A stretch of DNA of 32,000 nucleotides from Alkalilimnicola ehrlichii MLHE-1 (GTDB taxonomy: Bacteria; Pseudomonadota; Gammaproteobacteria; Nitrococcales; Halorhodospiraceae), in the NCBI RefSeq assembly GCF_000014785.1, contig NC_008340.1, forward strand, positions 270,001-302,000, given 5' to 3'. This document shows positions 284 through 28,187 of the stretch, piece by piece; within the stretch, counting starts at the first letter, position 1, and each line of letters starts with the position of its first letter. Made by a program: the position numbers and the translations under genes. The notes under the pieces were generated by a model that worked only from the letters and a program-made list of their open reading frames with translations, ran no database searches and had not been told where the DNA came from.

Positions 284-595
284 TCAGTAGCCGCCCTCAC
301 CCTCGGCCTCGCCTTCCGCTTCTCCTTCGGCCTCACCTTCCGCCTCACCTTCCGCTTCGCCCTCGGCCTCGGCCTCCGCCTCACCGGCGGCTTCCGCCTC
401 GCCGACCGCGGCCTCGGCTTCGCCCTCGCCCTCCGCGGCGGCCATCATCTGATAGCCGCTATCGGCCACCGCGTCCGACATGACGGCGTGAATGCCGGCG
501 CCACCGCCGACAATCGCCAGAACGGGGACGGTGTAGGCGACACTGCGCGACAAGGTGCGCAGCAGTTGCTGACGGACTGTCTTTTCCTCACTCAT
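284..595 (-). CDS. Small (103 aa) single-TM protein with an acidic Gly/Ala/Glu repeat tail ending ...EGEAEGEGGY
   Basis: ATG at 595-593 is preceded by AGGAGG 4-5 nt upstream, the strongest SD seen in the window. The N-terminus is MSEEKTVRQQLLRTLSRS, followed by the hydrophobic segment VAYTVPVLAIVGGGAGIHAV and then about 50 aa of A/E/G repeats. Stop TGA at 286-284. The ORF-track start at 610 has no SD. Confidence 0.65.
   Translation of the reverse strand: MSEEKTVRQQLLRTLSRSVAYTVPVLAIVGGGAGIHAVMSDAVADSGYQMMAAAEGEGEAEAAVGEAEAAGEAEAEAEGEAEGEAEGEAEGEAEGEAEGEGGY
287..442 (-). repeat. In-frame 12-nt periodic coding repeat (GEAE tetrapeptide units)
   Basis: Repeated ggcctc(g/a)ccttccgc(t/c)tc units are visible on the plus strand. 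On the minus strand they translate as AAAEGEGEAEAAVGEAEAAGEAEAEAEGEAEGEAEGEAEGEAEGEAEGEGGY. Confidence 0.85.
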
Positions 596-694
596 ATTGC
601 CTCCTGTCACTCGGTTGCGGACCCACCCGCATTTTCGAAGATCATGACGACCTTCCTGGGTTCAGAATGACCCGGGAGTCCCCCGGGGAAGGGA

Positions 695-1349: not shown

Positions 1350-3839
1350 CTAGTTCGCTACTTTCTCCTTCCTCCCTTCCGGGTTGATCTCGCGCAGAAC
1401 GTCGTTCGCCGCACGGAGGGCGAGGTAGAGGTCGTCCCGATGCCCCACTGCGTAGACGGGTCGACCGGCCACCCAGTCGGCAAACTGTGACAGCGTTCGG
1501 CCATCCAGCCCGGTACCATCGTGGCGGGCCGTCTCCGGCAGCAGGTGGCCCAAGGCCTCGCGCAGGCCCAGCTGGCGGGCGATGCCCTGATCCCCGCTCG
1601 CGTCGTCGGGGGCGGCAATAAGGATCGCGGCCACCTCAACGGCATCGCGCGCCGGCGTGCCGGTCGCCGGCACCAGGTGGCCACGCTGGCCGAACCACCA
1701 AAGATGGGCAGTGGCGTCCGGCCCGTCGGGCTTTTCACCGGGCCGTGGGGTTGGCGCCGGCGTCGATGATCGTGGCTGGCGGAGCGGCAGCCCGAGGGAG
1801 CGGGCCCGGCCGCTGCCTTCCAGCGCAATGGCCGCGCCGCCGCTGGCGGTCTGGCCGTTCTCCCGGGCCAGGGCGAGGGCCAGGGCATCATCGCCGGTTG
1901 TATCGCCGCGGCAGACCAGCAGGGCGGCACCGGGATGGGACGGGCCGGCCGGGACCAGGGCGCCGGTGATCGCAATCTCCCCGACGTCGGGGGTGCGCCG
2001 CAACAGCGTCCGGACAAGCCAGGGGCCCAGCTCCGCAAGCCGCAGGTGCTCGGCGTCCACCTCACCGGCGATCAGCACGGTGTAGCCACGGCGCGAGCGG
2101 GCGATGTCCACCTCCAAGGCCTCCGCACCCGGTTCCGGCACAGCCAGCGGGGCCAGCAGCGGAAACAGCCGCCTTGCCGCCGGCTCGCTCCAAGTGCGCA
2201 GGTGCAATGCCTGCTGCCCGAGCCGCAGTGCCATGGCGTGGGGGGCATCGGCGGTGCGGGGTGCCGCGGCGCCAGAGGCGGAGGCTACGCCGTCCGCGGG
2301 TGTCTCGCAGGGCGCACCATCCGGGCATTGCACCAGCAGCCCCGCCTCGGCCCAGTCCGCCAGGGCCTCCCACACCTGTTGCTGTAGGGTGTTCGGGTCC
2401 GCGCCCTGCAGGGTCTGGTGCAATGCCGCGACGATCTCGTCCGGGCGCTTACCCATGGTGGCGTGCAGCCAGATGAGCGCGGCGGTGGGGTTGGTGGCGT
2501 AGAGCGCCTGGCGGGCCTCGCCGTAGAGGAGCAGTTCATCCCCGGAGATCACCTCCGCGACCTGCCAACGCTGCAGGGTGGGCCGGGCAACCGGTTGGGT
2601 GCTCAGGCCGTCGGCCAGCGCCACATCGGCGAAGCGGGGCAGCGGGAAACAGGAGAGGTAATGCGCCGCATCCGCGGCCGGCAGTATGCGCTGAAAGCCG
2701 CCGGCGTGGCGCGCCTCCCGCTCGGCCGCCGCGCGCCACTGGCCCACCGGGTCGTCGCCGGCGCCCTCGGCGGTGGGTTTCGGGTCGTTGAGGCCGGTCA
2801 TGGTTACCACGTCGGTCACCAGCCGGCGCTTGATGGCCGCCTCGATGTCGCCGCCATCCTCCGGCGCGGCGCACACGCCCAGCGACGGGCTGAGGTTGCA
2901 TTCCAGCAGCCAGGGCCGGATCCGGTCATCCACCAGGCAGTCCATGCCGATCAGCTCGTAGCAGCCCGCCTGATCCGCACCATGGTGCTGCAACTGGGCC
3001 CGCAGGTTCTCCCGTGCCGCGATCGTGGTCAGGGCCACAATGTCGCGCAACCGGTCGAACAGCGCCTCATCGTCGTGGCCCTGCTCGCGCAGCCAGTGGC
3101 GGTAACGCTGCAGGTCCACGAACACCACCGGGTCGTCGGCGGCCTCATTGAGCGCGTTGACGTCGGGGTTGGTGAGGTGGACGTAGGGGTTGTCGGCATC
3201 CTCCAGGCTGTAGGGCATGGAGGCGAGCTTGGCGAACCCCTGCTCATAGAGGTAGACCCGCAGCGGCTCCACCGAGGTGATCAGCACATAGAGGCGCAGG
3301 ACGTACTTGCGCTGGTTCATCAGGTGCGGCCGGCTGAGGTATTCCTGCACCATCCAGCGCTCGCCAGTGGGTACCTCGGCGACGTCCGAGACCAGCGAGA
3401 TGTCCTTGCCCCGTGCGGCGTTCTTGGGCTTGAGCAGCCAGCGCTTGTCGGGATGGGCGGCGGCGTGGGCCTGCAGGGCGTGGTAGTCGCCCGGCATGCT
3501 GAAGACCTGGGGCACGAAATCGGCCCGCGCCAGGTCCGGGTGCCCGGCGGGACGGCTGGCCACCAGGCGGCGCTGCAGGGCGTGCACGGTCTGGTAGAGG
3601 CGGCTTTTGACCGTCAGGCAGTTGTTGCCGGGGATGTGGTTGACGGTACGCCCGGGGCCGGTCTGCCGGAAGACCTCTTTGGGCGGCATGCCGGTGTACC
3701 AGCAGGCATCCCAGTGCTCGGCGTCCCCGGGTTGCCACAGGGCCGGGTCGAGCGCCTGCTCGAAAAAAATATCCTGCTCACGTTTACGCTTGCCGCCCAG
3801 CCAGAAACGGCGGGGTGCTGGGTTGGCGGATTCGGTCAT
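1350..3839 (-). CDS. 829-aa multidomain protein: N-terminal tubulin-tyrosine-ligase-family ATP-grasp domain, central PqqD-like (RRE) domain, C-terminal HprK-related kinase-like domain
   Basis: ATG at 3839 with GGGGGA 5 nt upstream. TTL motifs: WLLKPKNAARGKDISLV, MVQEYLSRPHL, RKYVLRLYVLITSVEPLRVYLYEQGFAKLA, HLTNPDVN, YELIGMDCLVDDRIRPWLLECNLSPSLG. The PqqD-like stretch is aa 421-505 (LYATNPTAALIWLHATMGKRPDEIVAALHQ...VWEALADWAEAGLLV). The C-terminal 290 aa resemble HprK-related kinases, but the P-loop position reads GDTTGDDA. Confidence 0.8.
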   Translation of the reverse strand: MTESANPAPRRFWLGGKRKREQDIFFEQALDPALWQPGDAEHWDACWYTGMPPKEVFRQTGPGRTVNHIPGNNCLTVKSRLYQTVHALQRRLVASRPAGHPDLARADFVPQVFSMPGDYHALQAHAAAHPDKRWLLKPKNAARGKDISLVSDVAEVPTGERWMVQEYLSRPHLMNQRKYVLRLYVLITSVEPLRVYLYEQGFAKLASMPYSLEDADNPYVHLTNPDVNALNEAADDPVVFVDLQRYRHWLREQGHDDEALFDRLRDIVALTTIAARENLRAQLQHHGADQAGCYELIGMDCLVDDRIRPWLLECNLSPSLGVCAAPEDGGDIEAAIKRRLVTDVVTMTGLNDPKPTAEGAGDDPVGQWRAAAEREARHAGGFQRILPAADAAHYLSCFPLPRFADVALADGLSTQPVARPTLQRWQVAEVISGDELLLYGEARQALYATNPTAALIWLHATMGKRPDEIVAALHQTLQGADPNTLQQQVWEALADWAEAGLLVQCPDGAPCETPADGVASASGAAAPRTADAPHAMALRLGQQALHLRTWSEPAARRLFPLLAPLAVPEPGAEALEVDIARSRRGYTVLIAGEVDAEHLRLAELGPWLVRTLLRRTPDVGEIAITGALVPAGPSHPGAALLVCRGDTTGDDALALALARENGQTASGGAAIALEGSGRARSLGLPLRQPRSSTPAPTPRPGEKPDGPDATAHLWWFGQRGHLVPATGTPARDAVEVAAILIAAPDDASGDQGIARQLGLREALGHLLPETARHDGTGLDGRTLSQFADWVAGRPVYAVGHRDDLYLALRAANDVLREINPEGRKEKVAN

Positions 3840-3983: not shown

Positions 3984-4008
3984 AAAAAAGCCCGCCGGGG
4001 GCGGGCTT
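3984..4008 (-). terminator. Rho-independent terminator downstream of tRNA-Lys
   Basis: The minus strand reads agcccgcc-cccg-gcgggct followed by tttttt (plus strand aaaaaagcccgccgggggcgggct). Confidence 0.8.
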
Positions 4009-4055: not shown

Positions 4056-4131
4056 TGGTGGGTCGTGTAGGACTCGAACCTACGACCAGCGGGTTAAAAG
4101 CCCGATGCTCTACCAGCTGAGCTAACGACCC
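4056..4131 (-). tRNA. tRNA-Lys (anticodon UUU)
   Basis: The reverse complement is GGGTCGTTAGCTCAGCTGGTAGAGCATCGGGCTTTTAACCCGCTGGTCGTAGGTTCGAGTCCTACACGACCCACCA. It is 76 nt with anticodon loop CTTTTAA, a GGTTCGAGTCC T-arm and an encoded CCA. It is nearly identical in layout to E. coli tRNA-Lys. Confidence 0.95.
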
Positions 4132-4207
4132 AAATGAGGGCGCAAATTCTAGCCGAAGCCGGTGGCCTTGGCAATCCTGGGTGTGCTGCCCGCCCCCACC
4201 GCCCCCA

Positions 4208-5918: not shown

Positions 5919-7226
5919 TTACCAGGCGGGTTCGCGGGTCAATCCGCCGGCGCGGGGCAAGGCCTGGTTGGCCCGGCCGTGCACGGAGACCGTGCGCAGC
6001 CTGGAGTCGCCGCTGCCACCGGCAGAGTACATGATCATATCGCCGTTGGGGGCGAATACGGGCGACTCATCCCACGGGCCGTCGGTGAGCACCCGGGTGC
6101 GGTCGCTCTCCAGATCGTGCACGGCGATGCGGAAGCTGCCGTTGTGCCGGTGCACCATGGCGATCCGCCGGCCGTCGGGGGACCAATTGGGCCGGGCGTT
6201 GTAGTCCCCGTCGAAGGTCACCCGTTCCACCCCGCCCGGGCCGTTCACCGCCAGGGTGTAGACCTGCGGCCGTCCGCCGCGGTCGGAGGTGAAGGCGATC
6301 CGCTCCCCGTCGGGTGAGAAAGTCGGCTCGGTGTCGATGGCCCAGTGGTCGGTCAGCCGGCGGACATGACCGTCGTCCAGCCGCAGCAGGTAGATGTTGG
6401 CACGCCCGTCCCGGGAGAGGGTGACGGCCAGGTGTCGCCCGTCCGGTGACCAGGCGGGGGCGCTGTTAATGCCGCGGAAGCTGGCGATCCGGTCGCGCTG
6501 GCCACTGCGCAGATTCTGGACGTAGATCTCGGAGCGACCGCCCTCGAAGGAGACGTAGGCCAAGCGGTCGCGCTCTGGCGACCAGGCCGGTGACATGATC
6601 GGCTGGCGCGACTCGAGGATCTCCCGCGGGCGCTGGCCGTCGGCATCGGCCACCATCAGCCGGTGGATGCGTTGGTCGTTGCGCTCTTCCACCTGGACAT
6701 AGGCGATCTGGGTGCCGAACACCCCGGGCAGACCCACTACCTCCTCGAAGACGATGTCGCTGATGGCGTGGGCCAGGCTGCGCAGGTTGTCCGGGTGCAG
6801 GCGGTAGCGCCGGCCCTCGATGCGGTTGCCGCGGAAGACGTCCAGCAGCTCGAAGGTGACCGAGACCCGGTGGCCGTCCATCTCCATCCGCCCGGTAACC
6901 AGGTAGTCCATGCCCAGGGCGCGCCAAGCCGAGAAGCGGGTGTCGTCCAGGCCGGCGGGGCGGGCCACCAGCTCCTCCCGGGGCAGGACCTCGAAGCGGC
7001 CGCTGCGCGCCAGGTTGTCGCTGATCACCCGGGCGATGTCCTGATCGGGGGTGGGAATTTCGCCGGTGACCGCAAAGGGGATGACGGCCACGGGCATGGC
7101 GCCCTCCTGGCCACCGATCACGTCGATGATGTCGTCGGCGTGGGCGGCCTGCAGCCCCACCAGCAGGAGGGCCAGGGTGCAAACGGTCTGGTAAAGGCGG
7201 CGCATGGCGTTACCTGTGCTGATCAT
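5919..7226 (-). CDS. tolB: Tol-Pal system beta-propeller protein TolB
   Basis: Signal peptide MRRLYQTVCTLALLLVGLQAAHA. Repeated propeller motifs are present (PAWSPDG, PTFSPDG, PNWSPDG). The start at 7226 overlaps the tolA stop as ATGA; an alternative start is at 7205. Confidence 0.9.
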   Translation of the reverse strand: MISTGNAMRRLYQTVCTLALLLVGLQAAHADDIIDVIGGQEGAMPVAVIPFAVTGEIPTPDQDIARVISDNLARSGRFEVLPREELVARPAGLDDTRFSAWRALGMDYLVTGRMEMDGHRVSVTFELLDVFRGNRIEGRRYRLHPDNLRSLAHAISDIVFEEVVGLPGVFGTQIAYVQVEERNDQRIHRLMVADADGQRPREILESRQPIMSPAWSPERDRLAYVSFEGGRSEIYVQNLRSGQRDRIASFRGINSAPAWSPDGRHLAVTLSRDGRANIYLLRLDDGHVRRLTDHWAIDTEPTFSPDGERIAFTSDRGGRPQVYTLAVNGPGGVERVTFDGDYNARPNWSPDGRRIAMVHRHNGSFRIAVHDLESDRTRVLTDGPWDESPVFAPNGDMIMYSAGGSGDSRLRTVSVHGRANQALPRAGGLTREPAW

Positions 7227-8224
7227 CGGTCCGGCGCGAAGCGGTAGGTGCGTTCGCGCAGCTCTCGGTTGGCGTCGTCGTCATCGGGCATGGGCAGCGG
7301 CGCGGCGCGGTAAGCGGCCCGGACCACCGAGGCGTCAAAGGCGTCGTTGCCGCTGCCGCGGGTGATGGTCACCTCCTGCACGTCGCCGTGGCGGGACAGG
7401 CGGATGCGCACCAGGGCCTCCAGGCCGGCCGGGGTGCCGCTGGGGCGAACCCAGGCGCGGCGCAGCTCGGCGCTGATCCGGCCGGCGTAACTGCCCACCG
7501 TCTGTTGCACCTCGCGGGCGCGGCGCTCGGCCTCGATGGCCTCCTGGCGGGCGCGCTCCTCGGCCTGGCGCTGGCGCTCCAGCTCCTCCTGCCGGCGGCG
7601 TTCTTCCTCCTGACGCTGCCGTTCTGCCTCTTCCTGGCGCCGACGTTCTTCCTCCTGGCGCTGACGCTCCAGCTCTTCCTGGCGCCGGCGCTCTTCCTCC
7701 TGGCGCTGACGTTCTTCCTCTTCCTGACGCCGCCGTTCTTCCTCCTGGCGCCGGCGTTCCTCTTCCTCCTGGCGCCGCTGTTCCTCCTCGCGGCGCAGTC
7801 GCTCGGCCTCTTCCTGCTGGCGGCGCTCCTCTTCGCGCCGGGCCTGCTCCTCGGCCTCGCGCCGCGCCTGTTCGGCCTCCTCGCGCCGCTGCTGTTCCAG
7901 CCGCTCCTGCTCGCGGCGCTCCGCCTCCCGCCGGCGTTGTTCCTCCTCCTGGCGCCGGCGTTCCTCCTCGGCCTGACGGCGGGCCTCTTCCTCGGCGGCC
8001 TCGCGCTCGCGGATGGGGGCCATGGCCACCTCTTCATCCACCGCGAACGCCTCGATAATCTCGCCGTCGCCGGCATGCTCCTCGGTGGCCTGGGGCAGCA
8101 GCGAGACATTGGCGAAAAAGAGCCCGAAGATGAGTACGTGCAGCAGGATCGAGGCCGCAACGTAACGGCCCGGCCGGACCGGGGGTGTCTGTCGCGCCCC
8201 CTTGGGCCGCTCAGGAGGCGTCAT
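7223..8224 (-). CDS. tolA: TolA with a greatly expanded Glu/Arg/Gln helical domain II
   Basis: N-terminal TM segment YVAASILLHVLIFGLFFANV, about 170 aa of EERRRQEE-type repeats, and a TolA-like C-terminal domain (GRISAELRRAWVRP...GNDAFDASVVRAAYRAAPLP). It lies between tolR and tolB. Confidence 0.9.
   Translation of the reverse strand: MTPPERPKGARQTPPVRPGRYVAASILLHVLIFGLFFANVSLLPQATEEHAGDGEIIEAFAVDEEVAMAPIREREAAEEEARRQAEEERRRQEEEQRRREAERREQERLEQQRREEAEQARREAEEQARREEERRQQEEAERLRREEEQRRQEEEERRRQEEERRRQEEEERQRQEEERRRQEELERQRQEEERRRQEEAERQRQEEERRRQEELERQRQAEERARQEAIEAERRAREVQQTVGSYAGRISAELRRAWVRPSGTPAGLEALVRIRLSRHGDVQEVTITRGSGNDAFDASVVRAAYRAAPLPMPDDDDANRELRERTYRFAPDR
7505..8011 (-). repeat. Charged coding repeat region inside tolA
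   Basis: Reiterated cctcctggcgc(c/t)g(a/g)cg(c/t)tc-type units encode QEEEERRRQEEERRRQEEEERQRQEEERRRQEELERQRQ and similar. Confidence 0.8.
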
Positions 8225-8225
8225 G

Positions 8226-8675
8226 TCAGCCCTCGCCGTCCGGCCTGCGGGTCATCAGCCCGACACCCGCCGCCCCGGCATCGCGTAGCCGCACCATCAC
8301 CGATACCACGTCGCCGTAGGGCACGTTGCTGTCGCCGTTGACCAGCACCCGCTTGTCGGGGCTGTCCGTCAATATGGCCATGACCGCACGGGAAAGTTCA
8401 CCCCTGTCCAGCGGTGCTTCCGGATCGTCGGCCATGTTCAGGTAGTAGCGACCGTCGGCATCCACCGAAACGATCAGCGGCTCCTGGGGCGGGTCCTGCT
8501 CGGCCTGGGCGTCCACCTGGGGCAGGTCCACGTCCACGCCCTGGTAGAGCAGCGGTGCGGTGACCATGAAGATGACCAGCAGCACCAGCATGACGTCGAT
8601 GTAGGGGACCACGTTGATCTCCGACATCGGCCGTCGCCGGGTACGGTGGCCCTGGGGGTTGGCGGAATAGGGCAC
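8226..8675 (-). CDS. tolR: TolR (ExbD/TolR family)
   Basis: RTRRRPMSEINVVPYIDVMLVLLVIFMVTAPLL matches the E. coli TolR N-terminus pattern (SEINIVPLLDVLLVLLLIFM). It lies between tolQ and tolA. Confidence 0.92.
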   Translation of the reverse strand: MPYSANPQGHRTRRRPMSEINVVPYIDVMLVLLVIFMVTAPLLYQGVDVDLPQVDAQAEQDPPQEPLIVSVDADGRYYLNMADDPEAPLDRGELSRAVMAILTDSPDKRVLVNGDSNVPYGDVVSVMVRLRDAGAAGVGLMTRRPDGEG

Positions 8676-14493: not shown

Positions 14494-14583
14494 TGGTAAA
14501 CGTTGAGGGGAGGGCATCCTCCCGCGTCATACGCGCCCGGCGACGGGTGGATAGTTAAAAGTCGACTCTACGGGAGAACGACC

Positions 14584-15000
14584 ATGCAAAAGCAACAGGG
14601 TTTTACTTTGATCGAGCTGATGATCGTGGTGGCGATCATCGGTATTTTGGCGGCGATTGCGATTCCGCAGTATCAGAATTATGTTACTCGGTCTCAGGCA
14701 TCTTCGGCGTTGAGCACGCTCTCTTCTCTGAGGACCTCATTTGAGGAGGCTATTCAACGAGGAGTGGACCCTTCATTTAATTCAGAGGATGCTGGTTTTA
14801 TCGGCATGGCAAGTGACGAACCGGACATCGGTACGCTGTCTTTCAGAGCGGACGACGGTGGTCTTGATTTTGACTTTAGTACTGAGGCCACTGCTGATCT
14901 TCAAAACGGAACATTGTCACTCGTAAGAACTGCACAAGGTTCTTGGAGCTGCCAGAGCGATGGTATAGAAGACCGTTTCCTCCCGCGGGGCTGTGACTAA
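14584..15000 (+). CDS. Type IVa major-pilin-like protein (138 aa)
   Basis: Prepilin leader [34 protein letters not shown]-terminal disulfide loop [27 protein letters not shown] lies upstream of ATG 14584. Confidence 0.9.
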
Positions 15001-15112
15001 GCAAGTGGGGGTCAGAGCTAGGGGTGAGGTCTTGCACTGCCACATTGGCTGAGGGAACGAGTTGATTGCTGGCAGTTGATTTCGGGTCCTAACTCCCGGC
15101 CCTAGCCTTGAG

Positions 15113-15144
15113 AGCCCCGGTGTAACAGCCGGGGCTTTTCTTCT
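15113..15144 (+). terminator. Rho-independent terminator after the first pilin gene
   Basis: agccccgg-tgtaacag-ccggggct followed by tttcttct. Confidence 0.8.
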
Positions 15145-15165
15145 GGCAGGGCAGAAATGGATACT

Positions 15166-15579
15166 TTAGCTGTTGCCTCGCGCGCCCCGGTATTCGTTCA
15201 GGATTGGCAGCAAGTCCCAATACTCGTTCCGCGACTGCACTTCGAACGCGACTCGCCTGTTCGGCGCCTTGTCGATCAGTAACAGACCGTCGCGCAGCAC
15301 ACGGTGAACAAGGTCCGGCGGTACCTGGTTCAGGTGCACCAGGTCTACCCTGCGGCCGAGCGCATCTTCCAGATTCAGCTTCAATCGGGTAAGGGGTTTG
15401 AGAAGCCCCGGCTCGATCTCATCCGGGGTGAGCACAGCGATGTCCACGTCGCTTCGGGGGCCTGCGTCACCGCGAGCGACGCTGCCGAAAAGATAAGCGT
15501 AGATGACGGCAGGCTCATCCGTAAGCAACGGTGTGAGCTGGTTGGCCAGGCCGTGTGGGTCATGCGTCGGCAATTCCAT
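15166..15579 (-). CDS. MntA-like nucleotidyltransferase (antitoxin-type minimal NTase), with no HepT/DUF86 partner
   Basis: Start MELPTHD at 15579. NTase motif LFGSVARGDAGPRSDVDIAVL (GS-x9-DxD). The C-terminal helix region is FEVQSRNEYWDLLPILNEY. Only about 20 nt separate its stop from the pilin terminator, so there is no room for a toxin gene. Confidence 0.7.
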   Translation of the reverse strand: MELPTHDPHGLANQLTPLLTDEPAVIYAYLFGSVARGDAGPRSDVDIAVLTPDEIEPGLLKPLTRLKLNLEDALGRRVDLVHLNQVPPDLVHRVLRDGLLLIDKAPNRRVAFEVQSRNEYWDLLPILNEYRGARGNS

Positions 15580-15609
15580 CCCGTTATGCTGAGCGGGTCG
15601 TGCCGCCTG

Positions 15610-15900
15610 TGCAAGGCGGGTGTGAACGCCAAGGGTATGCGCTACCTCAACGGGGTTTACACTCAGTTCGTGAGCCGGACGCACCGGCGTGTCGGGCCTG
15701 TCTTTCAGGGCCGCTACAAGGCCATCCTGGTTGAAAAAGGGGATTATCTGCTCGAACTGGCCCGCTATGTGGCGCTGAATCCGGTGCGAGCGGAAATGGT
15801 CAATGATGCTGCCGATTGGCCCTGGCGCAGCCACCGGGCGATGCTTGGGGCCGTGGAGGTGCCCGACTGGTTGACGTGCGACCGGCTGCGCCAGCAAATC
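15610..15900 (+). pseudogene. Fragment of a REP-associated tyrosine transposase (RAYT / IS200-like Y1 transposase), truncated at both ends
   Basis: GMRYLNGVYTQFVSRTHRRVGPVFQGRYKAILVEKGDYLLELARYVALNPVRAEMVNDAADWPWRSHRAMLG matches the conserved C-terminal half of RAYTs (LNG.YTQ.FNRRH...GHLFQGRYK..LVE...YLLEL.RYI.LNPVRAG.V....YPWSS). The N-terminal HUH-containing half is absent and is replaced by the antisense NTase gene. Confidence 0.7.
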
Positions 15901-15905
15901 TACCT

Positions 15906-15921
15906 TGGCACAGAACCTGCT
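15906..15921 (+). promoter_or_regulatory. Sigma-54 (-24/-12) promoter of the second pilin gene
   Basis: TGGCACAGAACCTGCT has GG at 15907-08 and GC at 15919-20 with canonical spacing. It lies about 28 nt upstream of ATG 15949. Confidence 0.65.
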
Positions 15922-15948
15922 GGTTATCTCCCACGATAAGGGGGAGTT

Positions 15949-16386
15949 ATGAGCCAGAAGCAGCGGGGGTTCACACTGATTGAGCTGATGATGGTCGTCG
16001 CGATCATCGGCATCCTTGCAGCCATCGCGATACCGTCCTACATGGGCTATGTCGCACGCGCTCAGTTTGCGGATGGCCTGTCCCTGACCGGTATGGCCAA
16101 GACGGCCGTTGCCGAGCGCCTGCAGCGCGGGGAGTCATTCTCGAGTCTGGAGGATGACCTGGGAATGCAAATGGTGGGCGGCTTTGGCGGGCTCATTGAG
16201 AGGGGGTTCGACGGCAATGAGCAGGGGACCTGGACCCTTGAATACGAGTTCGGTCTGAACGGCCAGGATGTCAACTGGCTATTGGACGGCAAGAATGTCC
16301 GCTATGTCTATGACTTTGATTCCGGTGGCTGGTCGTGCCAGACGGATGTCGCGCAACGCTACGTGACAGGCTGCGAATCCGACTGA
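15949..16386 (+). CDS. Type IVa pilin-like protein, second paralogue (145 aa)
   Basis: Leader [35 protein letters not shown]-terminal disulfide loop [28 protein letters not shown] upstream. Confidence 0.9.
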
Positions 16387-16597
16387 GTTAGGGGGTGGCG
16401 TGAATCGTTCACATTGCCGTGATGGGTGACGCGATGGGGTGACCATTTGCGTCATCGGTGGCGTGTAGCGTCAATGTTGCTGCACGTGCTTTCCTTCATC
16501 AGGCTTTTCTACTGGTAACGATTGGCGACAGGAACACGTGAATCCGGCGAGTCCTGCCGTGGTGCTTTCATTTATTGAGTGCGCTTCTTGGTTTTTT

Positions 16598-16614
16598 TGG
16601 TCCGATCTCTGCAT
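16598..16614 (+). promoter_or_regulatory. Possible sigma-54-type promoter upstream of the minor pilin operon
   Basis: TGGTCCGATCTCTGCAT has GG (16599-600) and GC (16611-12) at canonical spacing, but the -24 box is weak. It lies about 80 nt upstream of the fimT-like start. Confidence 0.3.
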
Positions 16615-16694
16615 CATTGCTCAGCGCGGGGTCCATCCTGCGGTAACCGGGACAATTCGGCCCCATTTCCAACTAGCCACAGGACCAACTCATC

Positions 16695-17201
16695 GTGCCG
16701 ACGCGCAGCCGAATCAATATCCCCAGTCCGGGGTTCACGCTCGTAGAGCTGCTTGTCACCCTGTTTGTGGCAGCCGTTCTGCTTGGCATTGCTGTACCAA
16801 GCTTCCAGCACTTGGTTGAGAACAATCGGGTGGTCTCCAACACCAATGCCTTCCAGGGTGTGCTGCAGTACGCTCGCTCCGAGGCATCACGCCGCCAGGA
16901 AGTAGTCAGCCTGTGTCCATTGAATGGTGGTTGGTCAGAGGGAGCTTACGTGGTTTTGGGTGCCAGTTGCGATGGTTGGAGCGGTAATGATCCAGATGAG
17001 CTGCGGCGTGTGTCTCTGGACGAGCGCCTAAACGTTGAGGCGGACTTTCCAGGGCGTTTGACGTTTCTAGTCAATGGCCAGGTGAATGGCGCGCAGGGGA
17101 TGCGCACAATCACCATTTCATCGGGGATCCAGAGTATCGATATGAGACGGATTAGTTTGCTCGGGTCAGGGGCCTCGAGGGTTGAGCGTGTGGAGGATTG
17201 A
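16695..17201 (+). CDS. GspH/FimT-family minor pilin
   Basis: GTG start. Prepilin site PSPG/FTLVELLVTLFVAAVLLGIAVPSF, followed by the FimT-like segment NAFQGVLQYARSEASRR. Confidence 0.8.
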   Translation: MPTRSRINIPSPGFTLVELLVTLFVAAVLLGIAVPSFQHLVENNRVVSNTNAFQGVLQYARSEASRRQEVVSLCPLNGGWSEGAYVVLGASCDGWSGNDPDELRRVSLDERLNVEADFPGRLTFLVNGQVNGAQGMRTITISSGIQSIDMRRISLLGSGASRVERVED

Positions 17202-17244
17202 CGCCGTGTGGTATTTCTCGTCAGACATGTGGCAGTGCCGGACA

Positions 17245-17667
17245 ATGATCGGGAATCGAGGCTTTACGCTTATAGAGGCATTGGTGGCGCTGGTCATTAT
17301 CGCTATTGGTGTGCTTGGGATAGGCAGCCTGGTGCTCCAGTCGTTGCGCGCGAGCACGGATGCCAATCAAAACACCATGGCGGCTATTCTCGCTTTGGAT
17401 GTCAACGAGAGAGCGTGGATTGAGGCTGCTGGAGGCCAGTTGGACGACTGCGACTGGGACCAAGTCACTGGTCTGGAGGGAGCTCCCCATCCTTTTTGGG
17501 CGGGTGAGGTGGATTATCTTGCCGGGGCGGGCATCCGCGTCACCGGTGCATTCCCAGACTGCGATTTGATCGTTGAATGGGATGGCAACGCGGGCGGCGT
17601 CTTCGGTGATCGTGACGACATGCAATTTGTGCACGCTTTCGTGTTGCCGGATCTCGACCAGTTATGA
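17245..17667 (+). CDS. pilV: Type IV pilus minor pilin PilV
   Basis: MIGNRG/FTLIEALVALVIIAIGVLGIGSLVLQSLRAS matches the PilV N-terminal signature. It is second in the minor pilin operon. An alternative start is at 17227. Confidence 0.8.
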   Translation: MIGNRGFTLIEALVALVIIAIGVLGIGSLVLQSLRASTDANQNTMAAILALDVNERAWIEAAGGQLDDCDWDQVTGLEGAPHPFWAGEVDYLAGAGIRVTGAFPDCDLIVEWDGNAGGVFGDRDDMQFVHAFVLPDLDQL

Positions 17668-18356
17668 GGTGGTCCATGACTCGTTATTCTTACAGGCGGC
17701 ACAAAGGGTTCTCCTTGGTGGAGCTCATGATCGGGCTCCTGATCGGGACGCTGTTAGTGGGCGGAGTGGTTGCCGTCTTCGTGAACGCTATGGCGAGTTT
17801 TGAGCGCCAGCGGGAGGTTGACCGGTCGCAGGAGTCCCTGCGCTACGCGGTGAACTTCCTGGTGCGTGAACTACGACAGGTTAGCGCTGGGGGAGGTGAC
17901 TTCGGTGTTGTCAATCCCGGTTTGGAAGTGGAAGCGGCCCCAGATGCAGCAAGAGGGCATCGTATTACCGTTCGATATCAGGTGTTCGACGATGGAGAGG
18001 CCCAGTCCTGTCGGGGTGATGATCTGGCGGAGGGTGACGAGGCAGAGAAAAGCTTCTTCGTTGGAACCCCCACTGGCGAGCCCCTTTTGATTTGTGAGGA
18101 TGACGACGGTGAGACACCTATCGCCTTCGGTTTAAATGCGTTGACCGTAGTGGCGTTGATGGTCGATGACAATCAGGACGGCGATTACGAGGTCGAGGAT
18201 GATCCGGATTCGGGGTGGTTTGATGGCAGCGAGGCGCTCGATGACGTCATCGGGCTTCGTCTCGAATTCGGGCAGCAATGGGTGGATGAGCAGACGCGCC
18301 CAGTCGAGGTCACGGTAGGCTTGCGAAACCGGATCTTTCAGCGCTTGCTGGAATGA
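17664..18356 (+). CDS. pilW: Type IV pilus minor pilin PilW (short, acidic C-terminal half)
   Basis: RRHKG/FSLVELMIGLLIGTLLVGGVVAVF followed by SQESLRYAVNFLVRELRQ. The ATGA overlap with the pilV stop suggests coupling; an alternative ATG is at 17676. Confidence 0.75.
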   Translation: MRWSMTRYSYRRHKGFSLVELMIGLLIGTLLVGGVVAVFVNAMASFERQREVDRSQESLRYAVNFLVRELRQVSAGGGDFGVVNPGLEVEAAPDAARGHRITVRYQVFDDGEAQSCRGDDLAEGDEAEKSFFVGTPTGEPLLICEDDDGETPIAFGLNALTVVALMVDDNQDGDYEVEDDPDSGWFDGSEALDDVIGLRLEFGQQWVDEQTRPVEVTVGLRNRIFQRLLE

Positions 18357-18420
18357 TTGATTGGGTTTCAAGGGTGGCAGTGTAACTCAGCAGTTGATTG
18401 AGGGCTTGGGAGAACCGTCA

Positions 18421-19653
18421 ATGAGCGATACGGCATTTGGACATTTGGCGGACCGGCAGCGCGGTATTGCCCTGATGATGAGCCTGGTCCTCCTGGCGGT
18501 GCTCTCCCTCGTGGGTGTCACCGCGATGCAGGGCTCTGTACTGCAGGAACGCATGGCGGGTGGGCAAAGCACGTTACAGGATGCGTTCCTTGAGGCCGAG
18601 GCGGACCTGGTCAGGCAGCTTAACTGCGTGCTCGACAACAGTGACGATATGCCAAACCTGGAGGCTGAATGCGGACTGGTCATCGATCCTGATACCAATA
18701 CCTTAGAGTTGACAGCCAATGCGGTCCACGCGACCGGTGCGCGTCAGGTCCTGGCTATGAATGTCCGGTTGAACGTTTTGGGTGAAGGTGACGAAGGGGA
18801 CGAAAGAGCGGGCGGTTTTAACTCCAACGCGGCGGTTTCGTGTTTTGGGGCAGAGTGTGATGTGAGCCCTGGTCCGGGCGCGGCGGACTATGGCATCGAT
18901 GGTCGGGACTATACCGCCCCGGACCTGACCCAAGGGGAAAACTGCGGGATACAGGGTGCTCACACCCGTGATTTCGCAGATGCGGATGTCAGGCAGGATG
19001 TCGCAGGGGCCATCGTACCGGAGGGTGATATCAGTGACAGGCCAGGTGCTGGTGGCGGGGGTGGTAGAGGGGGGCCGCCGGGCGGTGGTGGCGGTGGAGG
19101 GCCCTCTGGAATTATCGGTAGCCCGGATGTGATTGATAACTCAACCCACTACGAGGCGACTTACGGCCACAGTACAGCGCATGCAGTGAATGAGTTTAAT
19201 CAGCTTATCAATAGCCTGGTTCAGGGCAGGGAACCCAGCAGCCATGCTGTGGGTGCGTATGAGGAGGGGATCTACTATGCCGGGGAAGGGGATGAGATCA
19301 CGTTCAGCGGTGAGGGGCAGTCCGGCTTCGGCGGGATTGTTATTCTGGAAGGCGGATCATTAAACCTGGACGGAAACTCCTGTTTCTCAGGGTTGGTTCT
19401 GGTTCGAGGTGGGGGTACGGTAACGGGCGGGACCTCAGCGATCATCGGCAGTGTTATCTCGATTCCGGGTTTTGATGAACAGGGTGAGCCCCTGGAGTCG
19501 GCCCTGGATACTGCTGGCAATACCAGTTTCTTCTATAGTGCCGAGGCCTTGCGACGTGCCGGCGAGATCTGGGATGAGGAAGACGACGACGATGGGGATG
19601 GGCCATCGGGTATCGCGGAGTGGGGTGGCTGGCGTGCGCCGTTGAACTTGTAG
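18421..19653 (+). CDS. PilX-N-domain protein with a long C-terminal extension (410 aa)
   Basis: ATG 18421 with GGGAGAA upstream. QRGIALMMSLVLLAVLSLVGVTAMQGSVLQERMAGG is the PilX N-terminal signature. A poly-Gly run lies at 19045-19110. The C-terminus has a repetitive G-rich beta-like region (GGIVILEGGSLNLDGNSCFSGLVLVRGGGTVTGG) and an acidic end. Confidence 0.75.
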   Translation: MSDTAFGHLADRQRGIALMMSLVLLAVLSLVGVTAMQGSVLQERMAGGQSTLQDAFLEAEADLVRQLNCVLDNSDDMPNLEAECGLVIDPDTNTLELTANAVHATGARQVLAMNVRLNVLGEGDEGDERAGGFNSNAAVSCFGAECDVSPGPGAADYGIDGRDYTAPDLTQGENCGIQGAHTRDFADADVRQDVAGAIVPEGDISDRPGAGGGGGRGGPPGGGGGGGPSGIIGSPDVIDNSTHYEATYGHSTAHAVNEFNQLINSLVQGREPSSHAVGAYEEGIYYAGEGDEITFSGEGQSGFGGIVILEGGSLNLDGNSCFSGLVLVRGGGTVTGGTSAIIGSVISIPGFDEQGEPLESALDTAGNTSFFYSAEALRRAGEIWDEEDDDDGDGPSGIAEWGGWRAPLNL

Positions 19654-19706
19654 CCGTTGGTCTTGGCCAGGGGCCGCTGGATGGTGGTGCGCTCCTGGTC
19701 TTGCAC
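19652..19706 (-). pseudogene. About 55-bp remnant of the 3' (Fis-type HTH) region of a pilR-like gene
   Basis: gccgttggtcttggccaggggccgctggatggtggtgcgctcctggtcttgca aligns with pilR 20478-20532, with about 5 mismatches. It translates as QDQERTTIQRPLAKTNG, compared with LQDLERTAIQRALAKTNG in pilR. Confidence 0.7.
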
Positions 19707-26066: not shown

Positions 26067-26074
26067 AGACCATG

Positions 26075-26108
26075 AAAAAACCCCGGGCGGCGGGGCCGCT
26101 CCGGGGCT
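26075..26108 (-). terminator. Rho-independent terminator of the icd-CBS gene
   Basis: The minus strand reads agccccgg-agcggccccgccgc-ccggggt followed by tttttc. Confidence 0.75.
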
Positions 26109-26152
26109 TAAGACAACAGGCCGTGGGGCGCTGCCCTAAGGGGCCGTGTTGC

Positions 26153-27913
<1,761 letters not shown>

Positions 27914-28187
27914 TCGTCCTCCTTAGAATTAGTGTCGGGTCGAGTTGCGGACGGGCTTTTGGCCCGCCTTCCGCGCGGTGGCTTTCTATCAGGTGCGGTG
28001 CAACTCGGGGACAGCCTGAATATTCTGGACCACGCCCAGAGGGCGATCAAGCAGATAGGCGGCGCGAGCCCTCGCTGGGCCCCCAAGGGCGGGGGCTTTC
28101 CTTTGGTCTTTTGAGCGGATGCGTCGGGGCTGGTCGCCGTGTTGCGACTTCCGCCCCGGCACTATGCGTCCAAGCCGGTCGTCTCCG

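Follow-up and report, generated by a model that had tools for sequence, protein, structure and literature searches.

The window analyzed here, a 32,000-nucleotide stretch of Alkalilimnicola ehrlichii MLHE-1 DNA (contig NC_008340.1, positions 270,001 to 302,000), carries at 284–595 on the minus strand a small gene for a protein of 103 amino acids, whose sequence reads as a leader, an export-signal-like stretch and a (GEAE)n tail with a GGY end. With a probability of roughly 0.6, we consider this protein to be a precursor resembling those of peptides that are made on the ribosome and modified after translation (RiPPs), whose glutamate side chains would be amino-acylated before export by a ligase encoded in the same operon. 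The ligase gene (1350–3839, minus strand) codes for 829 amino acids and joins a TTL/TTLL ATP-grasp domain to a PqqD-type RiPP recognition element (RRE) and a C-terminal domain resembling PEPCK and HprK. It was missed in a preliminary description of this DNA, which dealt with the small gene, and it provides the decisive context for reading that gene. The finding combines two known kinds of system, RRE-guided peptide modification and the chemistry of the TTLL enzymes.

The small gene begins with ATG at 595 and ends with the stop codon TGA at 284–286, as given by the sequence and its list of open reading frames (ORFs), and its full translation is MSEEKTVRQQLLRTLSRSVAYTVPVLAIVGGGAGIHAVMSDAVADSGYQMMAAAEGEGEAEAAVGEAEAAGEAEAEAEGEAEGEAEGEAEGEAEGEAEGEGGY. 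The ATG at 595 agrees with the N-termini of the homologues in the leader alignment, whereas an upstream GTG at 610 does not. A Shine-Dalgarno sequence, AGGAGG, is present, as the preliminary description had stated, and lies at 600–605 (minus strand), 4 nucleotides upstream of the ATG. The rank of strongest in the window, also claimed there, is not unique to this site, as the hexamer occurs 50 times in the 32 kb. Within tolA (7223–8224) it recurs many times, often at a spacing of 45 nucleotides, over 7372–7968 on the minus strand, owing to a periodic repeat in the coding sequence, presumably in the part for the charged central domain of that protein.

The polyanionic tail, residues 53–103 (287–439, minus strand), is the predicted acceptor region of the ligase and consists of 51 residues, namely 21 Glu, 16 Ala, 12 Gly, one Val and the final Tyr, ending in ...GEAEGEGGY. 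It had been called strictly Ala/Glu/Gly with a 12-nucleotide periodicity and a GGY end; the periodicity and the ending stand, and the composition is almost entirely as described, with the single valine as the exception. The tail offers carboxylates and has no Lys, Ser or Thr, and the whole precursor is devoid of Cys. Over 295–385, Tandem Repeats Finder reports a period of 12 (7.6 copies, 77% matches) and a period of 36 (85% matches), and the base autocorrelation of the repeat DNA peaks at lags of 6, 12, 24 and 36. Proteins with identical or nearly identical leaders differ in length, with 86 amino acids in Alkalispirillum mobile, 103 in the window and 108 in a metagenomic relative (locus L085, ligase 75% identical), and tails reach about 77 residues among the complete small homologues. 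This evolutionary comparison bears out the earlier suggestion that the repeat is a site of length variation, and because the 12-nucleotide unit preserves the reading frame, the repeat would change the length of the protein and not switch it on and off.

An acidic tail, the lack of which in orthologues had been named as a point that would count against the gene, is kept in the 73 small homologues. The C-terminal Tyr, to which the preliminary description had drawn attention, is not a family feature, as the last residue is Gly in 41 of these proteins, Ala in 11, Tyr in only 6 and Glu in 4, with Ser, Asn, Gln or His also found; the six tails ending in Tyr are confined to an Alkalilimnicola/Halofilum/Natronospira clade and to locus L026. 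Lysine occurs in many Marinobacter tails, and many homologues have none. Eight loci (L004, L014, L027, L040, L041, L048, L079 and L080) contain two small paralogues with a leader and (GE)n repeats, often one of the (GE)n type, divergently transcribed, and the other of the (GEAE)n type, and one ligase may therefore serve several substrates.

Codon comparison indicates that the small gene is under purifying selection. Over the first 56 codons, 20 codons differ synonymously and 4 non-synonymously between the window and L085, and codon position 3 of the minus-strand frame accounts for 21 of the 24 base differences; a second relative (L086) gives 19 synonymous and 3 non-synonymous changes. As synonymous and third-position changes dominate, the minus-strand frame is the selected one, which settles a doubt raised earlier about the opposite strand, and the ORFs at 134–670 and 268–483 on the plus strand are by-products of the G+C-rich repeats. 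Gene prediction in a different A. ehrlichii assembly includes the same gene. When the small protein was scanned against Pfam and NCBIfam, no family emerged and the only hits were noise from low complexity. A search of the 61-residue leader against a collection of 5.8 billion proteins gave one relative, a hypothetical protein of Alkalispirillum mobile, and the exact window protein is absent from that collection. The small gene is almost missing from protein databases, and such genes are mostly unannotated. Since the N-terminal search proposed in the preliminary description yielded this one relative, homologues were sought by a six-frame hidden Markov model (HMM) search of ligase loci, which did recover them. 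Together with the purifying selection and the conserved leader, their position beside TTL-PqqD genes agrees with the earlier view that this is a real gene and not a repeat artifact.

The ligase is 100% identical to A. ehrlichii MLHE-1 ABI55594.1/WP_011627990.1. Its public names include "PqqD family peptide modification chaperone," "tubulin polyglutamylase TTLL5" and, often, "amylase"; the last, carried by many homologues in NCBI and UniRef (P0009, P0042, P0043, P0085, P0097 and others), is evidently a propagated misannotation. The match to PF03133 (TTL) scores 189.9 bits against a cut-off of 20.1 (E 7.7e-56). For the catalytic domain, residues 33–395 (2655–3743, minus strand), the best solved relative in the PDB is TTLL6, with E 1e-37 from the single sequence and 1.7e-56 from the profile, followed by TTLL7 (E 3.5e-32), while the glycylase TTLL3 (E 1.6e-16) and TTL itself (E 4.5e-9 to 3e-13) are far weaker matches.

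The active site was mapped by profile alignment onto the published active site of TTLL6 (bioRxiv 10.1101/2020.06.07.139295). Arg-182, Lys-204, Asp-300, Glu-313 and Asn-315 are invariant in 21 homologues and correspond to TTLL6 Arg-219, Arg-241, Asp-346, Glu-359 and Asn-361, with Lys-204 being a conservative change relative to Arg-241. In TTLL6, Arg-219, Arg-241, Asp-346 and Glu-359 serve in binding of ATP and Mg2+ and in stabilization of the acyl-phosphate (bioRxiv 10.1101/2020.06.07.139295). Arg-143 (Arg in 18 and Lys in 3 of the 21 sequences) aligns with TTLL6 Gln-180, a position held by Arg in every branch-initiating TTLL and by Gln in the elongases (bioRxiv 10.1101/2020.06.07.139295), and the invariant Leu-316 aligns with TTLL6 His-362, which is Ile in the initiase TTLL4. 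The domain thus carries the sequence signature of an initiase, with an Arg at the Gln-180 position and an aliphatic residue other than His at the His-362 position. These residues suggest that the ligase is probably active and that it probably forms isopeptide bonds on internal Glu residues.

Downstream of the catalytic domain, the ligase contains a PqqD-like winged helix at approximately residues 420–505 (2325–2582, minus strand), which was assigned as an RRE by AlphaFold2 modeling and Foldseek and which matches PF05402 (PqqD) with 31.6 bits against a cut-off of 23.4. The AlphaFold2 model of residues 405–520 has a pLDDT (predicted local distance difference test) of 88.3, and its best Foldseek match is the RRE of the lasso protein TbiB1 in complex with its leader (5v1v, E 2.6e-5, template modeling score 0.84); further matches are the lasso B1 protein 6jx3, PqqD (5sxy) and then the RREs of MibB, ThcOx, CteB, TigE and PbtF. 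Compared with a model of HvfC, the similarity is weak and below the cut-off.

The remaining 310 residues, 520–829 (1353–2282, minus strand), have no match by sequence profile in the PDB or Pfam; the AlphaFold2 model, a confident one (pLDDT 82.9), shows marginal similarity in fold to PEPCK and HPr kinase. A motif scan found no Walker A motif, GxxxxGK[ST], in this domain, so it is probably not a kinase, and the model points to what is probably a degenerate, non-catalytic PEPCK/HprK-like module. Pairs of an RRE and an HprK-like kinase are known from lasso clusters, where BsfB1 works with BsfK in precursor phosphorylation.

The leader of the small protein, residues 1–45 (461–595, minus strand), was delimited by alignment of 107 distinct leaders and by hydropathy. 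It comprises an R-x-x-L-L-x-x-L-S-R motif, a hydrophobic stretch rich in Gly and Ala, and a possible signal-peptidase site, AVA|D, at residues 42–45. In the alignment, the R, LL, L, R, Y and P positions are each found in at least 70% of the sequences, and the pattern R-x-x-L-L-x-x-L-[SA]-[RK]-x-x-x-Y-x-x-P is kept from gamma- to alphaproteobacteria; ordinary signal peptides are not known to show such conservation. The putative RRE-binding element is the motif YxxPxL, formed by Tyr-21-Thr-Val-Pro-24-Val-Leu-26 (518–535, minus strand). The form YxxPx[LMIVF] is present in 70 of the 73 small homologues and the exact YxxPxL in 44 of them, compared with 1.3% of background 40-residue windows. YxxPxL is the conserved motif of lasso leaders that is bound by lasso RREs (PMC6784204, PMC10368454).

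The motif and the beginning of the hydrophobic stretch overlap, and about 33 residues separate the motif from the repeat region. The preliminary description took this stretch for a transmembrane-like segment and the product for a membrane protein. The hydrophobic stretch is present; its membrane identity is uncertain, as the mean Kyte-Doolittle hydropathy is a modest 1.86 over 15 residues and 1.56 over 19 residues (residues 25–43), values which fit the h-region of a signal peptide or a borderline transmembrane helix better than a clear transmembrane helix. Four Lys/Arg residues precede it within residues 1–18, and AxA-like sites follow it (AVA|D in the window and AVA|SE in Halomonas), a pattern that is conserved among the aligned leaders. 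Judged by these features, the N-terminus looks like a conserved RRE-binding leader that shares residues with an export signal, and a product that is cleaved and periplasmic is no less likely than a membrane protein. Tat export was rejected as a general feature because twin arginines are limited to Halomonas-type leaders.

The association between ligase and leader extends well beyond A. ehrlichii. A profile search with the ligase found relatives in 231 of some 186,000 genomes at species level, chiefly of marine, halophilic or alkaliphilic Proteobacteria, and 80 species-representative loci were fetched. An HMM built from 38 N-terminal residues of the small protein was run on all six-frame ORFs of these loci, and a leader-bearing ORF was found no more than 4 kb from the ligase gene in 78 of the 80. 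The small (GEAE)n protein is encoded in 62 loci, a cytochrome-fused form in 44 and both in 28, and of 71 small genes, 51 come immediately downstream of the ligase gene in the same orientation. Within the window itself, the leader HMM matched the ORF at 284–595 alone. The hosts include Marinobacter, Halomonas and allies, Halofilum, Aquisalimonas, Natronospira and Ectothiorhodospiraceae, and, among the Alphaproteobacteria, Robiginitomaculum, Parvularculaceae and Geminicoccaceae. The flanking genes vary between these genera, which argues that the linkage of the ligase with the small gene is not simple synteny.

The cytochrome-fused form constitutes a second family of 45 ORFs in all, in which a similar leader and (GEAE)n repeats are followed by a CxxCH cytochrome c domain of the SoxA/TsdA type (PF21342, 30.5 and 36 bits against a cut-off of 27). 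Examples lie at 16027–16698 of the A. ehrlichii locus L083, past the left edge of the window, where the protein has 223 amino acids, at 8541–9173 of L002 and at 6177–6836 of L085. In Robiginitomaculum, Parvularculaceae and Marinicaulis, the cytochrome-fused ORF is the sole leader-bearing ORF beside the ligase gene. Attachment of heme c to CxxCH cytochrome domains takes place exclusively outside the cytoplasm. Since this leader and these repeats also stand in front of a c-type cytochrome domain, the leader-repeat module is probably exported.

In the mechanism we propose, the PqqD-type RRE of the ligase would bind the conserved leader via YxxPxL. Since YxxPxL reaches into the beginning of the hydrophobic stretch, a bound RRE could cover the export signal, and export may in this way be delayed until modification is complete. 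The TTLL-type ATP-grasp domain would then activate the γ-carboxylates of the approximately 21 tail Glu residues as acyl-phosphates, and a free amino acid would be ligated to them through isopeptide bonds by initiase-type chemistry, as is known for TTLL4, -5 and -7 on tubulin tails. An external amine donor would be needed, as the tail supplies carboxylates and none of the nucleophiles Lys, Ser and Thr. The ligase must act before export, as its sequence has no signal peptide and the reaction requires ATP. The modified protein would subsequently be exported, either signal-anchored or cleaved near AVA|D to a soluble periplasmic peptide of about 58 residues with a net charge of about -21, and the cytochrome-fused paralogue with the same leader and repeats would be handled likewise. 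Binding of the leader by the RRE, the use of Glu side chains as acceptors and modification before export are all steps that we infer. As a guess at physiology, the product could be a polyanion that binds cations or protons in the envelope of its halophilic and haloalkaliphilic hosts.

Several points weigh against this mechanism. All links between the small protein and its role as ligase substrate are drawn from genomic or structural inference. In TTLL glutamylases, two lysines (Lys-283 and Lys-377 in TTLL6) hold the γ-carboxylate of the donor glutamate (bioRxiv 10.1101/2020.06.07.139295); the Lys-377 equivalent is kept as the invariant Lys-337, but the Lys-283 position is occupied by an invariant Phe (Phe-240). 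As Phe-240 replaces Lys-283, glutamylation is not assured, and we do not class the ligase as a glutamylase. The leaders of the cytochrome-fused proteins mostly read VxxPxM and not YxxPxL, and the twin arginines are seen in Halomonas-type leaders only. For the C-terminal domain, the similarity in fold is marginal, with PEPCK at E 1.4e-3 (probability 0.99, TMq 0.46) and HprK (1knx) at rank 36. Branched side chains may also pass poorly through SecYEG. Finally, the signal peptide of bufferins is dispensable for their modification (PMC11626156), so that recognition need not depend on a leader that coincides in part with a signal peptide.

The alternative that survives best, although we regard it as improbable, is that the small protein is an unmodified acidic protein, exported or membrane-anchored, that acts as a cation or proton buffer or as an envelope spacer in a haloalkaliphile, with the TTL-RRE enzyme acting elsewhere or merely chaperoning the leader. 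The target of the enzyme would then be the cytochrome-fused paralogue only or an unlinked protein. Acidic envelope polymers are a plausible adaptation for hosts that are all halophiles or alkaliphiles, and the cytochrome-fused form is the only leader-bearing ORF in 16 of the 80 loci. The small gene is nevertheless the commonest partner of the ligase, and it mostly follows the ligase gene directly on the same strand. The leader and repeats are common to both forms, so an enzyme that recognizes one should recognize the other, and it is not obvious what an RRE joined to an intact ATP-grasp ligase would do other than act on a leader-bearing peptide.

Less favored still is an extension of the C-terminus of the tail through α-peptide bonds, like that made by RimK on S6, by TTL on α-tubulin (Tyr) or by TTLL11 on tubulin ends, in which case the encoded GGY of Alkalilimnicola might mimic a product that is made post-translationally elsewhere. 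The family name and the analogy of an acidic tail with a Tyr end to tubulin speak for this, as do the existence of TTL-family enzymes that act at chain ends and the encoding of a terminal Tyr in one clade only. The Arg/Lys at position 143 is instead the signature of isopeptide-forming initiases and not the Gln of α-linking elongases, and TTL matches much more weakly than TTLL6 and TTLL7 (E 4.5e-9 versus 1e-37 for TTLL6). Furthermore, TTL and RimK need a terminal Glu as acceptor, which only 4 of 73 ORFs have, and the Glu and Tyr of TTL at the Lys-283 and Lys-377 positions are replaced by Phe-240 and Lys-337. On the last two grounds, TTL-type tyrosination was rejected as a general reaction.

An intramolecular cross-linking of tail side chains by the ATP-grasp enzyme, as in graspetides such as the microviridins, seems very unlikely. 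ATP-grasp RiPP enzymes that join Glu or Asp to Lys, Ser or Thr are well known, and many Marinobacter tails have the Lys that this would call for, but the tail in the window has none of the three nucleophiles, many homologues have no Lys, and the enzyme belongs to the TTL family and not to the graspetide or RimK type; for the window protein, the lack of Lys, Ser and Thr in the tail led us to reject such cyclization. That the ORF is a chance open frame in G+C-rich repeats, with the real gene on the opposite strand, is hardly credible and was rejected on the codon-change pattern, to which the gene call in a second assembly, the suitably spaced Shine-Dalgarno sequence and a leader conserved across two proteobacterial classes can be added, even though several long ORFs overlap on both strands and the exact protein is missing from a large protein collection.

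Compared with known systems, the proposed pair of enzyme and substrate most resembles the tubulin tails and their TTLL enzymes (the initiases TTLL4, -5 and -7 and the elongase TTLL6). The ligase belongs to the same Pfam TTL family, keeps the ATP/Mg and acyl-phosphate residues and has the Arg that marks initiases, and the presumed substrate is likewise a disordered tail rich in Gly and Glu; α-tubulin ends in ...GEEEGEEY. In contrast to the tubulin system, the pair is bacterial, a fused RRE reads an N-terminal leader in place of the microtubule-binding domains of the TTLL enzymes, and the substrate is small and probably exported and not a cytoskeletal polymer. Unlike in the TTLL glutamylases, the Phe at the Lys-283 position means that the added residue may not be Glu, and there is an extra PEPCK/HprK-like domain. 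RimK of Escherichia coli resembles the ligase as a bacterial ATP-grasp enzyme that adds amino acids post-translationally to the acidic end of a ribosomally made product, ribosomal protein S6, whose C-terminus it extends with poly-α-glutamate. It belongs to a different ATP-grasp family (Pfam finds TTL here and not RimK), acts on the terminal Glu of a cytoplasmic ribosomal protein and involves neither an RRE nor a leader, whereas the tails here rarely end in Glu.

Among RiPP systems, those with lasso B1 RREs (TbiB1, TfuB1) have in common with the present one the YxxPxL leader motif and the combination of an RRE with an HprK-like module, and TbiB1-leader complexes are the best structural matches of the RRE model. 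Unlike in lasso clusters, however, a lasso cyclase and a protease are missing, the RRE forms part of a TTL ligase, and the HprK/PEPCK-like domain is without a Walker A motif; the motif in lasso precursors also stands 12–17 residues before the core and does not, as here, lie at a greater distance and overlap an export signal. Bufferins are copper-binding, MNIO-modified RiPPs whose precursors have Sec signals and which are made with an RRE partner and an accessory DoxX (BufA/BufB/BufC/DoxX; PMC11626156). They share with the present system a long precursor, with an N-terminal export signal that is putative here, and an accessory DoxX in the operon, and their modification in the cytoplasm with an RRE partner, followed by export to the periplasm, is a precedent for the order of events proposed here (PMC11626156). 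In bufferins, though, Cys is converted to thiooxazole by an iron enzyme, where we propose ATP-grasp ligation on Glu; the precursor here has no Cys, and DoxX is found in only 15 of 84 loci. Graspetides of the microviridin type likewise have a leader-bearing ribosomal precursor and an ATP-grasp ligase that acts on acidic side chains, as is proposed here, but they form intramolecular esters and amides, for which the tail here offers no Lys, Ser or Thr, and the ligase is of the TTL family.

The gene for the DoxX-family membrane protein, an accessory component of 139 amino acids (PF07681, E 6e-9), lies at 695–1114 on the minus strand. Upstream of the small gene, on the same strand, it comes first, so that the ligase gene is two genes away. 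Its similarity to the HvfX DoxX of RiPP maturation is weak and below the cut-off. On its other side, the small gene is followed by a DinB_2-family gene (PF12867, E 5e-6), whose 5' part occupies 1–134 on the minus strand and which runs past the left edge of the window (13705–14286 in L083). Of 84 loci, 58 have a DinB-like gene, in most cases as the next gene after the small one. Such a gene is probably a core component, and one possibility is that it trims or further modifies the tail; members of DinB_2/DinB are putative metal-dependent enzymes.

Past the left edge, the cluster continues with the DinB_2 gene, a gene with a Glu_synthase domain (PF01645; L083 14322–15983) and the gene of the cytochrome-fused protein. 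Eight of the 84 loci have a stand-alone Glu_synthase-domain gene beside the cluster, in two arrangements, with the gene upstream and divergent in L008, L015, L020 and L034–L036. Such a neighbor gives a weak hint of a linked glutamate supply; as a candidate core component it was set aside, given its presence in so few loci.

Between the Tol-Pal cluster and the ligase operon lies a gene for tRNA-Lys(UUU) at 4056–4131 on the minus strand, with a sigma-70-like promoter at 4174–4146 and an intrinsic terminator at 4008–3988. tRNA genes are common insertion points, and since one adjoins the operon and the neighbors differ in other genera, the ligase module may be mobile. Elsewhere in the window, the G+C content drops from about 0.67 to 0.56–0.60 at approximately 14500–19700, over a cluster of type IV pilin and minor-pilin genes (Pilin, N_methyl, GspH, PilX_N), and an ORF with a nucleotidyltransferase domain (Polbeta/NTP_transf_2) lies at 15166–15897 on the strand opposite to these genes. 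An ORF of 680 amino acids at 26072–28114 on the plus strand has no Pfam match at E ≤ 1e-4 and is overlapped on the opposite strand by an ORF of 586 amino acids.

A bacterial TTL with PqqD, a RiPP or a precursor was not found in the literature searched, although a 2009 survey of amidoligases (Iyer et al.) may hold an earlier mention, nor was a natural substrate assigned to bacterial TTL-domain proteins in that literature. A genome paper of 2010 counted 19 bacterial TTL-domain proteins, and comparative work has argued that the eukaryotic TTLs derive from bacteria. The present findings expose a gap in annotation, with the ligase frequently entered as "amylase" and the small substrate gene hardly represented in protein databases. 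They also provide a cheaply testable pair of enzyme and substrate, with a YxxPxL motif, a predicted regiochemistry of Glu isopeptide bonds and a second class of substrate in the cytochromes c. If confirmed, the proposed reaction would be a new post-translational chemistry for RiPPs and exported bacterial proteins, and it would explain an operon of 231 species-level genomes and bear on the origin of tubulin-modifying enzymes. More tentatively, and with doubt prevailing, the system may be a bacterial counterpart, and possibly the evolutionary source, of the tubulin code, in which a TTLL-type ligase decorates the Glu-rich, disordered tails of dedicated ribosomal substrates recruited by an RRE. 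Were this true, the products would make up a novel class of polyanionic RiPP or protein, exported and aminoacylated on its side chains, and the preference of eukaryotic TTLL enzymes for acidic tails of Gly and Glu would have been inherited from a prokaryotic peptide-modification system.

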